This document shows positions 60,951-63,587 of a DNA stretch of 64,000 bases, one piece after another. The stretch is from a virus. Taxonomy: Duplodnaviria; Caudoviricetes. A program made the translations under genes and the position numbers. Each line of letters begins with the position of its first letter. Position 1 is the stretch's first letter. The notes under the pieces were generated by a model. That model saw only the letters and a program-made list of their open reading frames with translations. It searched no databases and was not told the DNA's origin. The stretch covers positions 25,816 to 89,815 of IMG/VR virus record IMGVR_UViG_3300048606_000075, one strand, 5' to 3'.

Positions 60951-60954
60951 AGAG

Positions 60955-61037
60955 CGGAAAGCAGAGGTTCCGACCCCCACGGCTCTTACACCGCTCCGGA
61001 TTTCAAATCCGGATGCATCACCCGATGCTTGCCTTCC
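60955..61037 (-). tRNA. tRNA-Ser(TGA), divergent T loop
   Basis: CCGGA-TTTGAAA-TCCGG; T loop GTCGGAA. Confidence 0.72.
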
Positions 61038-61038
61038 T

Positions 61039-61125
61039 TGGCGGAGAGCCGAGGTATCGATCCCCCAGGCTTTCACCTGTATGCCGCGCTTCGAACGCAA
61101 CTGCGTCACCATCAGCAGACTCTCC
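61039..61125 (-). tRNA. tRNA-Ser(CGA)
   Basis: TTCGAAG loop; G73; CCA; T loop ATCGATA. Confidence 0.78.
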
Positions 61126-61142
61126 AAGACTATTTAGTTGTT

Positions 61143-61235
61143 TGGCGGAGAGACTGGATCTCGAATCCAGACGGGATTGCTCCCCAACGATTTAGCAAAT
61201 CGTGGTCAGTAGGCCGGAACTTGACTTACCTCTCC
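61143..61235 (-). tRNA. tRNA-Ser(GCT)
   Basis: ACGAT-TTGCTAA-ATCGT; CCA. Confidence 0.87.
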
Positions 61236-61317: not shown

Positions 61318-61341
61318 ATGTCTAGATGTTACCGCGTCCTA

Positions 61342-61603
61342 CCCCACCCGGGCCAAAGGGTGGGGCAGCCACGCTACCTTGGTCCTGGGCTGTGGTGCGC
61401 GACATCAGAACGCGACCTTAGCCAACTCGACCCACTGTTTATCGCCTGCTCGCGTCGGCGACTAACCGACGTGTCTGAAGTTAGCGTGGGAGAACAGCTT
61501 GGTCAAGTTAGAACAGGGAGTACAAAGGCGTCTGCTGTACTGAACGTGCCAACGCACCACACGAGTGTTACAGAGCTTACCTGTGCCGTCGACCTTTGTA
61601 CTC
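61342..61603 (-). ncRNA. candidate structured non-coding RNA(s) in the tRNA array
   Basis: No credible ORF; stems of 11 bp (61518-61603), 8 bp (61342-61365) and several shorter ones. Confidence 0.45.
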
Positions 61604-61604
61604 G

Positions 61605-61676
61605 TACCGGAACCAGGAATCGAACCTAGATAAACGGCTTATGAGACCGTTGCCTTAGCCGTTAGGCTATTCCGGC
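61605..61676 (-). tRNA. tRNA-Met/Ile2(CAT)
   Basis: ACGGT-CTCATAA-GCCGT. Confidence 0.85.
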
Positions 61677-61677
61677 T

Positions 61678-61839
61678 TGGGGGCACGCCCAGGAGTTAAA
61701 CCTGGATCAACCTCTCAGTAACTCCCGAATGCAGATTCTTTGAACGTCTCCAAGTCCTCTACGGGAGGGGCATGCTCTCGCAGATGTACAGTCTGCTACT
61801 ACATGCACATCGGCACTTTAACGTTAAGCTAACGCGCCC
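61678..61839 (-). ncRNA. 162-nt tRNA-like RNA with large central insert
   Basis: 8-bp acceptor plus CCA, D arm, T arm CCAGG/CCTGG; about 100 nt in place of anticodon and variable arms. Confidence 0.55.
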
Positions 61840-61840
61840 G

Positions 61841-61914
61841 TGAACCTGGTGGGGGTCGAACCCACACTTGGAGGATTTTAAGTCCTCTTCCTCTGCCTAT
61901 TGGGATACAGGTCC
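61841..61914 (-). tRNA. tRNA-Leu(TAA), short variable loop
   Basis: GAGGA-CTTAAAA-TCCTC; A73. Confidence 0.87.
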
Positions 61915-61924
61915 ATACTAAGTT

Positions 61925-61999
61925 TGGGGCGAATGACGAGATTTGAACTCGCGTGACCCTGGACCACAACCAGGTGCATTCCTGTCTGCCACATCCGCC
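61925..61999 (-). tRNA. tRNA-His(GTG)
   Basis: CCTGG-TTGTGGT-CCAGG; G-1:C73; CCA. Confidence 0.9.
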
Positions 62000-62004
62000 A
62001 TGAG

Positions 62005-62250
62005 TAACGACGAGAACCATCTCACCCGCCGTTGTGACCAGCCCTCTCTCGTTTGTCTTCCGATCGCTGGCCTTCCGAGTATTCACGCAGGAAGGTCGGG
62101 ATGGGGTAGCGAACCTGCTCCCAACCCCCTGCGGGTGGTTCCGCTAGGTACGGGGGCTTACCACCAAGCCGCCGGGCTTTGCTCCGCTGCACCGGCTAGC
62201 GCCTTGGGGAGGATGTTCGACGAAGGTGCACCCCCTCCCCAGAGGTGACC
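62005..62250 (-). ncRNA. candidate structured non-coding RNA (about 250 nt)
   Basis: Multiple stems (GGGGAGG/CCTCCCC, CGCTAG/CTAGCG, GGCTT/AAGCC, CCTTCC/GGAAGG, CACCCGC/GCGGGTG); no credible ORF. Confidence 0.4.
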
Positions 62251-62253
62251 CAG

Positions 62254-62422: not shown

Positions 62423-62568
62423 TTGGCCCCCCAACACCACCAGGGGGTAGTTTACCGATCAGGTCACTACGCTGATCAGATGGTCGACTAAACATATCGC
62501 TCATAACGAGCGATAGAGGTCCAGCCCGGGGCCGGTTCCCCGTAAGCCCGTCAGTGTCACAGGCTTTG

Positions 62569-63534: not shown

Positions 63535-63587
63535 AAAGCCTGGGCAGTCCCGTAGGACGCCCAGGAGTTAGACGTGCTGCACGTGCG

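Follow-up and report, generated by a model that had tools for sequence, protein, structure and literature searches.

What kind of gene is the 162-nt element that sits between two tRNA genes in the tRNA array of this virus: a tRNA, the remains of one, or a tRNA-shaped RNA with another role? The window, i.e., the whole 64-kb stretch of DNA analyzed here, is the 3' end of an 89.8-kb IMG/VR virus contig with a completeness rating of 66%, and the majority of the contig's genes are on the minus strand. A minus-strand tRNA array runs from 59877 to the contig end and contains at least 19 tRNAs called by ARAGORN as well as two homing-type endonuclease ORFs. The phosphoesterase gene adjoining the array has its nearest named relatives in large Streptomyces and Mycobacterium phages (approximately 40% identity), and an endolysin and a clamp loader are also encoded near the array. 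The source is an uncultured actinobacterial phage. For comparison we use at least 100 loci, numbered with an L, which are the contigs around homologues of this phosphoesterase in IMG/VR, Logan, JGI, and NCBI.

The element (61839-61678, minus strand, 162 nt) shares its strand with all 19 or more tRNAs of the array and is packed flush against both neighbors. The 3' end of tRNA-Leu(UAA) is at 61840, one base ahead of the G-1 of the element, and the next tRNA begins at 61676, with one spacer base (61677) beyond the CCA of the element. The two neighbors are as follows:

61840-61914, minus strand: tRNA-Leu(UAA), upstream neighbor (ARAGORN and Rfam); CCA not encoded, ends in A73-C74, 82% identical to the tRNA-Leu of L009
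61604-61676, minus strand: tRNA(CAU), downstream neighbor (ARAGORN; Rfam, 64.6 bits); part of a lineage-specific block of 329 nt

We found no promoter-like or terminator-like sites flanking the element, so it is most likely part of a polycistronic tRNA precursor. The array already carries normal genes for tRNA-Tyr, tRNA-His, and tRNA-Cys. Among these, the ordinary tRNA-His that the first-pass annotation had placed nearby is at 61925-61998 and has both G-1:C73 and CCA. The downstream tRNA(CAU) is not homologous to the tRNA-Met of the same slot in L009; its best phage matches are weak, some of them annotated as tRNA-Ile, and judging by these matches it may be a lysidine-type tRNA-Ile2 rather than a tRNA-Met. 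Elsewhere in the array, the 254-nt GC-rich spacer between tRNA-Asn and tRNA-His (61999-62252, minus strand) folds at -107 kcal/mol, lacks tRNA-like ends, and has no Rfam match and no homologue among the related loci. Three class II tRNA-Ser genes (approximately 61040-61127, approximately 61141-61235, and 60954-61037, all minus strand) are missed by default ARAGORN. Ser(CGA) and Ser(GCU) were identified by eye and are homologous to called genes of L009, and Ser(UGA) is seen only at a lowered ARAGORN threshold and as a tRNA-Sec-like Rfam match (41.5 bits).

The element had been described from its letters as a tRNA-like RNA with a His-type end, and every part of that description can be located: a 7-bp acceptor, G-1:C73, CCA, a 4-bp D arm, and a 5-bp T arm. 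The parts of this tRNA-like shell are as follows:

61839, minus strand: G at position -1, which can pair with C73 to give a tRNA-His-type end (direct reading)
61832-61838, minus strand: 5' strand of the acceptor, GGCGCGU, pairing with 61682-61688 in 7 bp that include one G.U and one U.G
61815-61829, minus strand: D-arm-like hairpin GCUU/AACGUUA/AAGU, 4 bp and weak (direct reading; pair probability approximately 0.013)
61689-61705, minus strand: T arm CCAGG/UUUAACU/CCUGG (direct reading; shuffle probability 0.0092)
61678-61688, minus strand: 3' strand of the acceptor, GCGUGCC, followed by discriminator C73 (61681) and the encoded CCA (61680-61678) (direct reading)

The T stem lies directly 5' of the acceptor 3' strand. 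The acceptor stem, T arm, and 3' CCA of a canonical tRNA are thus all present here. The T arm retains the equivalents of U54, U55, and A58 and has U in place of C56. The D arm follows U8-A9 and retains the equivalents of U8, A14, and A21, G18-G19 are absent, and the elbow pair G19:C56 between the D and T loops is lost. The acceptor begins with G1:C72, G2:C71, C3:G70, and G4:U69; since the pair at position 3 is C3:G70, the earlier remark that G3:U70 is absent and that the RNA is not tmRNA-like is borne out. Only on the minus strand can the G.U pairs of the acceptor and D stems form; read on the plus strand, the G.U and U.G of the acceptor would be mismatches.

A loose descriptor of a cloverleaf shell gave 129 matches in approximately 1.07 Mb (both strands). 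Since this descriptor alone is unspecific, we based the chance estimate on fixed-register shuffles. In 400,000 composition-matched shuffles, the chance was 0.0014 for the acceptor, 0.0092 for the T arm, and 0.0125 for the CCA. The product of these shuffle probabilities gives a joint chance of approximately 1.7e-7 for acceptor, T arm, and CCA, and of 4e-9 including the D arm. The tRNA shell is far beyond chance. Furthermore, a covariance model built from the element alone aligns end to end with genuine tRNAs (T4 tRNA-Thr, 18 bits, E 2e-4, and also tRNAs of related loci), and these single-sequence matches are an independent sign of a tRNA-like shell. The junction of T loop, T stem, and acceptor (UAACUCCUGGGCGU) recurs as a 14-nt exact repeat at 63557-63570 (minus strand) in the spacer between two tRNA-Gly genes; the repeat may have arisen through recombination inside the array, or by chance.

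From D arm to T arm the element contains an insert of 108 nt, which forms two hairpins when acceptor and T arm are enforced. The features of this center are as follows:

61770-61806, minus strand: hairpin A, with a lower stem GCAUGU/GCAUGC, an internal loop, and a Tyr-type stem-loop at its tip (constrained folds and the center folded alone)
61780-61796, minus strand: tRNA-Tyr-type anticodon stem-loop GCAGA-CUGUACA-UCUGC, with C where A37 is expected (comparison with 325 tRNAs)
61722-61767, minus strand: hairpin B, with a closing stem CUCCC/GGGAG and two weaker inner helices (minimum free energy fold and both constrained folds)

The three central stems named in the first-pass annotation (GAUGUGCA/UGUACAUC, GCAGA-CUGUACA-UCUGC, and CUCCCG/CGGGAG) can each be read directly. 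The Tyr-type stem-loop is identical at 16 of 17 positions to the tRNA-Tyr anticodon arm of L020, where the sole mismatch is C for A37, and at 14 of 17 to that of L013. When all 325 tRNAs called across the fetched loci are compared, an identity of at least 13 of 17 is seen with tRNA-Tyr alone. Beyond these 17 nt we found no similarity between the element and tRNA-Tyr, and descent from the phage's own tRNA-Tyr is rejected on that ground.

Could this hairpin serve in decoding? A tRNA places a 5-bp/7-nt anticodon arm with U33 and a purine at position 37 one base after the D stem, and no such arm is present at that point; the sole candidate has C37 and an extended stem. Between the D arm and hairpin A lie 8 nt, where a tRNA has 1 nt, and the Tyr-type 5-bp/7-nt stem-loop starts 18 nt past the D stem. 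Given that this stem-loop also sits on approximately 6 extra bp, it cannot serve as an anticodon arm on the ribosome. The separation of 8 nt, the extra base pairs, the pyrimidine at position 37, and the lost G19:C56 together indicate that the center, with its displaced and over-long Tyr-like hairpin, cannot read codons.

The tRNA-like fold has a close competitor. The unconstrained minimum free energy is -56.7 kcal/mol (z = -2.3 versus shuffles, i.e., more stable), and the fold with acceptor and T arm constrained reaches -56.3 kcal/mol, 0.4 above the minimum. As modeled, the tRNA-like fold ties with the rival fold and is not a unique optimum. Pair probabilities are approximately 0.34 for the acceptor, 0.12-0.13 for the T arm, and approximately 0.013 for the D arm. 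The minimum free energy fold does without acceptor pairing: the 5' strand of the acceptor folds back onto 61817-61813, its 3' strand has 61775-61768 as partner, and 61725-61719 takes up half of the T arm. When the shell is constrained, the D region finds its partner in the segment ahead of the T arm, a topology like that of tmRNA P2. Forming the D arm proper costs a further 3.6 kcal/mol, and the D arm competes with a 5' hairpin and a long central helix.

This ambiguity raises the question of whether the element might be an RNA that uses both its tRNA-like and its rod-like fold, or whose molecules pair with each other through self-complementary loops. The near-equal energies of the two folds agree with this, as does the availability of a second partner for each shell strand, one such pairing being the perfect 7-bp GGAGUUA/UAACUCC helix. 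A 6-nt palindrome occurs in two of the three 7-nt loops, as AACGUU in the D loop and as UGUACA in the Tyr-type loop, and by direct reading it is the change of A37 to C that creates the second; the chance of two palindromic loops in three is approximately 0.003 by a rough post-hoc estimate. The idea itself was formed post hoc on a single sequence, and the total count of 6-nt palindromes in the element is approximately at chance level. We regard it as distinctly improbable.

Default ARAGORN run on the array does not call the element, and Rfam 15 returned no match for the element, whether scanned within the array or as the 162 nt alone at E<=10, with no tRNA, tmRNA, intron, ribozyme, or Y RNA family found. 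A canonical decoding tRNA is rejected, since neither an RF00005 match (gathering score 29 bits) at E<=10 nor a default ARAGORN call was obtained. A tmRNA is likewise rejected: G3:U70 is lacking, none of the three frames is tag-like, and the ARAGORN tmRNA search and Rfam were negative. Nor did we find in the 89.8-kb contig a repeated stretch of 9-13 nt complementary to the element, such as an antisense regulator of phage genes might have as its target.

The first-pass annotation had also proposed a tRNA containing an intron, and splicing of an interrupted gene to a decoding Tyr, His, or Cys tRNA would be consistent with the presence of the GUA loop. This proposal did not hold up. ARAGORN with introns allowed yields no acceptable cloverleaf: the normal threshold gives no call, and lowering it brings up only a poor model of tRNA-Cys(GCA) with a 65-nt intron, which we reject because the intron splits the anticodon, the anticodon stem is mismatched, and the variable region of 23 nt is unpaired. 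No single excision produces a standard cloverleaf, and using the Tyr-type hairpin as the anticodon arm needs two separate excisions. The insert is shorter than a group I intron would need, and neither a self-splicing core (no intron or ribozyme family match in Rfam) nor splicing enzymes were found; genes for RtcB, the CCA enzyme, and Ro60 (TROVE) were all missing from the 89.8-kb contig, which is 66% complete. Given also that normal tRNA-Tyr, tRNA-His, and tRNA-Cys genes are already in the array, an interrupted tRNA is very unlikely.

We found that the order of the array (Thr, Trp, Gln, Gln, Asn, His, Leu, the slot of the element, Met, a structured RNA, Tyr, Ser ... Phe, phosphoesterase) is kept in relatives, in contigs whose phosphoesterases are 54-72% identical. 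The occupant of the slot varies. In the nearest relative, L009, the flanks are approximately 85% identical at the DNA level, the element is absent, and tRNA-Leu abuts tRNA-Met. Homology to L009 stops at 61843 and restarts at 61514, so that a 329-nt block stands here against an 84-nt tRNA-Met there. Three parts make up this block (61515-61843, minus strand), namely the element, the tRNA(CAU), and a module of 86 nt with an 11-bp closing stem, and for none of them did the fetched loci yield a homologue. In L015 the slot contains two Met genes and a spacer of 90 nt. In L013 the same slot holds an RNA of 135-137 nt (L013:7695-7831, plus strand) with canonical D and T arms, an ACCA end, and no standard anticodon arm; ARAGORN reports this RNA, as a questionable tRNA with an intron, only once the threshold is lowered.

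Searches for the element itself were negative throughout. Neither blastn against phages and plasmids nor blastn and nhmmer against the at least 100 phosphoesterase-homologue loci, including 79 metagenome loci, gave a homologue, and covariance-model scans gave none either. Exact and gapped patterns of the element found no homologue in IMG/VR, where five matches were judged to be due to chance because their regions have no tRNA call or other likeness to the element. The GTDB genomes gave two matches, judged to be due to chance because they have no T arm or other likeness. Four additional contigs had no tRNA array in the fetched stretch. By sequence comparison the element is an orphan, with no relative in the phages, plasmids, IMG/VR, GTDB, and metagenome loci searched.

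The same comparison uncovered other RNAs in these arrays. Directly upstream of tRNA-Tyr lies a conserved structured RNA of approximately 150-190 nt (61318-61516, minus strand, in the window; L009:925-1112; L013:7907-8102; L015:6500-6673). It has invariant blocks in the four related phages, e.g., CACGCUAACUU and GUUCUGA, and RNAalifold assigns it 41 pairs, 11 of them with compensatory changes; it has no Rfam match. A 145-nt structured spacer between the two tRNA-Gln genes (62423-62567, minus strand) is conserved at L009:236-380 (nhmmer E 1e-28, within a 558-nt stretch that is 85% identical). The T arm of the L009 tRNA-His (L009:557-640) is disrupted relative to L015 and L013, through either pseudogene formation or a fault in the assembly. 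Canonical T arms (UUCRANY loops and 5-bp stems) are also numerous outside ARAGORN calls in the arrays of L013, L015, L018, L019, L020, and L005, which suggests that related phage arrays may hold further non-canonical tRNA-like genes.

Several of these observations bear on the idea that the element is a relic, i.e., a former tRNA gene, perhaps class II and Tyr-like, that has taken up insertions and point changes, is still excised via its surviving minihelix, and has no function of its own beyond spacing. A relic would account for an element that is lineage-specific, absent from L009, and contained in a 329-nt block in place of an 84-nt tRNA-Met; for degenerate elbow nucleotides (no G18-G19, and U at 56); for an ambiguous fold; and for the lack of any homologue found. 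The arrays also appear to be in flux, given the damaged T arm of the L009 tRNA-His and the many orphan T arms in related arrays. Uniform decay, however, would not be expected to leave all 12 of the 12 shell base pairs, G-1:C73, and CCA intact amid a remodeled interior. The 17-nt Tyr-type hairpin is likewise intact save for one base, and both boundaries of the element fit the neighboring genes to within one base. We consider a relic a serious rival, although somewhat unlikely.

Alternatively, the element could be a DNA-level scar of recombination or homing-endonuclease activity and not an RNA gene at all. The array does contain two homing-type endonuclease ORFs, the edges of the block coincide with the breaks in homology to L009, and the 14-nt repeat of the T-arm/acceptor junction is found in the Gly-Gly spacer. 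A scar leaves unexplained why the element should carry a complete shell of acceptor, T arm, and CCA with strand-specific G.U pairs, and we consider it extremely doubtful.

Our preferred reading is that the element is a non-decoding, tRNA-shaped small RNA gene that would be cut out by tRNA-processing enzymes and is an analogue, in layout, of T4 RNA C. We give this reading a probability of roughly 0.5. A new tRNA-mimic non-coding RNA was one of three readings offered in the first-pass annotation, and it is the best of the three: the shell is far beyond chance and the center cannot decode, but the homologues that would strengthen it were not found. The lack of a homologue in any collection searched counts against our reading, since it leaves no signal of covariation or selection. 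Also counted against it are the nearest relative L009, which is without the element; the rival fold, which ties, with an alternative partner for every shell strand; and D and T loops without G19:C56. Counted in its favor, besides the shell, the spacing to the neighbors, the strand-specific G.U pairs, the lack of promoter-like or terminator-like sites beside it, the lack of a cloverleaf, the Tyr-type hairpin, a fold more stable than shuffles, and the precedent of T4 rnaC, is the second tRNA-bodied RNA without a standard anticodon arm in the same slot of a related phage (L013:7695-7831).

Bacterial RNase P recognizes the acceptor/T-arm minihelix and the 3' CCA, and in tRNA-His precursors the G-1:C73 pair moves its cleavage to -1. 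From the sequence we infer the transcription of the element, its processing sites, its stability, and any role as a mimic or decoy, along the following lines. The array is probably transcribed as one precursor, in which the acceptor/T-arm minihelix and 3' CCA of the element would be the part recognized by host RNase P and 3'-trimming enzymes. Cleavage on the 5' side of G-1, together with cleavage where the next tRNA begins, would free an RNA of 162 nt that keeps a one-base 3' trailer. The first of these cuts would also give tRNA-Leu an A73-C74 end from which its CCA could be completed. Defined ends and stability would come to the RNA from its tRNA shell, and the 108-nt center, with its two hairpins, one of which carries a tRNA-Tyr-type loop on an over-long stem, would be the functional cargo.

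What might such cargo do? Since the His-type end and the Tyr-type loop both belong to tRNAs with GUN anticodons, they invite the idea of a chimeric decoy, in which a His-type acceptor end and a Tyr-type GUA anticodon hairpin would absorb a tRNA-directed host defense or tie up a host enzyme. The His-type end (G-1:C73-CCA) would be bound or charged by HisRS or by other readers of the acceptor end. The GUA hairpin would bait readers of a G34-U35 loop, e.g., anticodon nucleases of the colicin E5 kind or queuine-inserting enzymes, and the two palindromic loops might permit self-pairing. A decoy for tRNA-targeting defenses, the third reading of the first-pass annotation, may gain a little from the match of 16 of 17 positions to a tRNA-Tyr anticodon stem-loop, as a post hoc comparison of sequences. 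Bacterial tRNA-Tyr identity uses A73, which the C73 of the element does not fit. Overall, we hold the chimeric decoy to be improbable.

Tracing the layout of the element through known RNAs places it among several families without joining any. Compared with canonical tRNAs (RF00005), it has the 7-bp acceptor, the 5-bp T stem and 7-nt loop, the equivalents of U8, A14, A21, U54, U55, and A58, and CCA. It is like tRNA-His, including the phage's own, in G-1:C73, and like tRNA-Tyr in a 17-nt hairpin that matches an anticodon arm at all but one position. Unlike a canonical tRNA, it is 162 nt long, its hairpin is not beside position 26, and it has C37 and no G19:C56. The tmRNAs (RF00023) similarly place acceptor, T arm, and CCA around a large insert, and the pairing of the D region with the segment before the T arm resembles helix P2, but the element is without G3:U70, a tag frame, or evidence of a pseudoknot and has less than half the usual tmRNA length.

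The mascRNA is a tRNA-shaped, non-decoding unit that is processed by RNase P and 3'-end enzymes. The plant mitochondrial t-elements are tRNA-shaped, non-decoding units processed in the same way (PMC1920247). The element is like both in being tRNA-shaped and non-decoding; unlike it, they are eukaryotic or organellar, usually approximately of tRNA size, and mark the ends of mRNAs or lncRNAs, and neither is homologous to it. YrlA-type Y RNAs are non-coding partial tRNA mimics found in actinobacteria and their phages, in which the tRNA-like module is internal and the ends form a Ro60-binding stem (PMC4201824). The ends of the element instead form an acceptor. The terminal Ro60-binding stem, internal tRNA-like module, and linked Ro60 gene of a Y RNA were not found: there is no Rfam Y-RNA match and no TROVE/Ro60 gene in the contig. 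On these grounds a Y RNA is rejected.

That phage tRNA clusters contain small stable RNAs other than tRNAs, such as T4 RNA C and RNA D, was recognized fifty years ago, and what these RNAs do is still unknown. We read the T4 gene from the T4 record: rnaC is 139 nt long, lies in the tRNA cluster, and combines a hairpin core with a canonical T arm and an imperfect closure of the acceptor type. Like RNA C and RNA D, the element is a small RNA gene on the tRNA strand of a phage tRNA cluster in which a homing endonuclease gene is also present. It is like RNA C in size (162 versus 139 nt), in a T arm followed by an acceptor-like closure, in a hairpin core that is not that of a tRNA, and in having no anticodon function. 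Thus each part of an RNA C-like layout (cluster, tRNA strand, T arm with acceptor closure, and non-tRNA core) is found in the element. The two differ in that rnaC has a canonical UUCGAAU T loop, two U.U mismatches in its acceptor, and no encoded CCA, whereas in the element the acceptor is perfect and extended by G-1:C73, the CCA is encoded, the T loop is degenerate, and a Tyr-type hairpin is present. We found no homology between them, the covariance model of the element scoring 6 bits on the T arm of rnaC only, and by this analogy the element resembles RNA C in layout only. The role of RNA C (species 1 RNA, rnaC) is still unknown (PMC3014915, PMC9697503). As a single case without relatives found, the element carries limited weight and adds one further data point for a recurring, unnamed class of phage RNAs. 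Our data suggest that it is an RNA C-like design in a distant actinobacterial phage, in which a tRNA handle is set around a non-decoding core. Its handle has an unusually explicit His-type end and its core a Tyr-type hairpin, and this combination leads to direct hypotheses about HisRS, RNase P, and readers of the anticodon loop.
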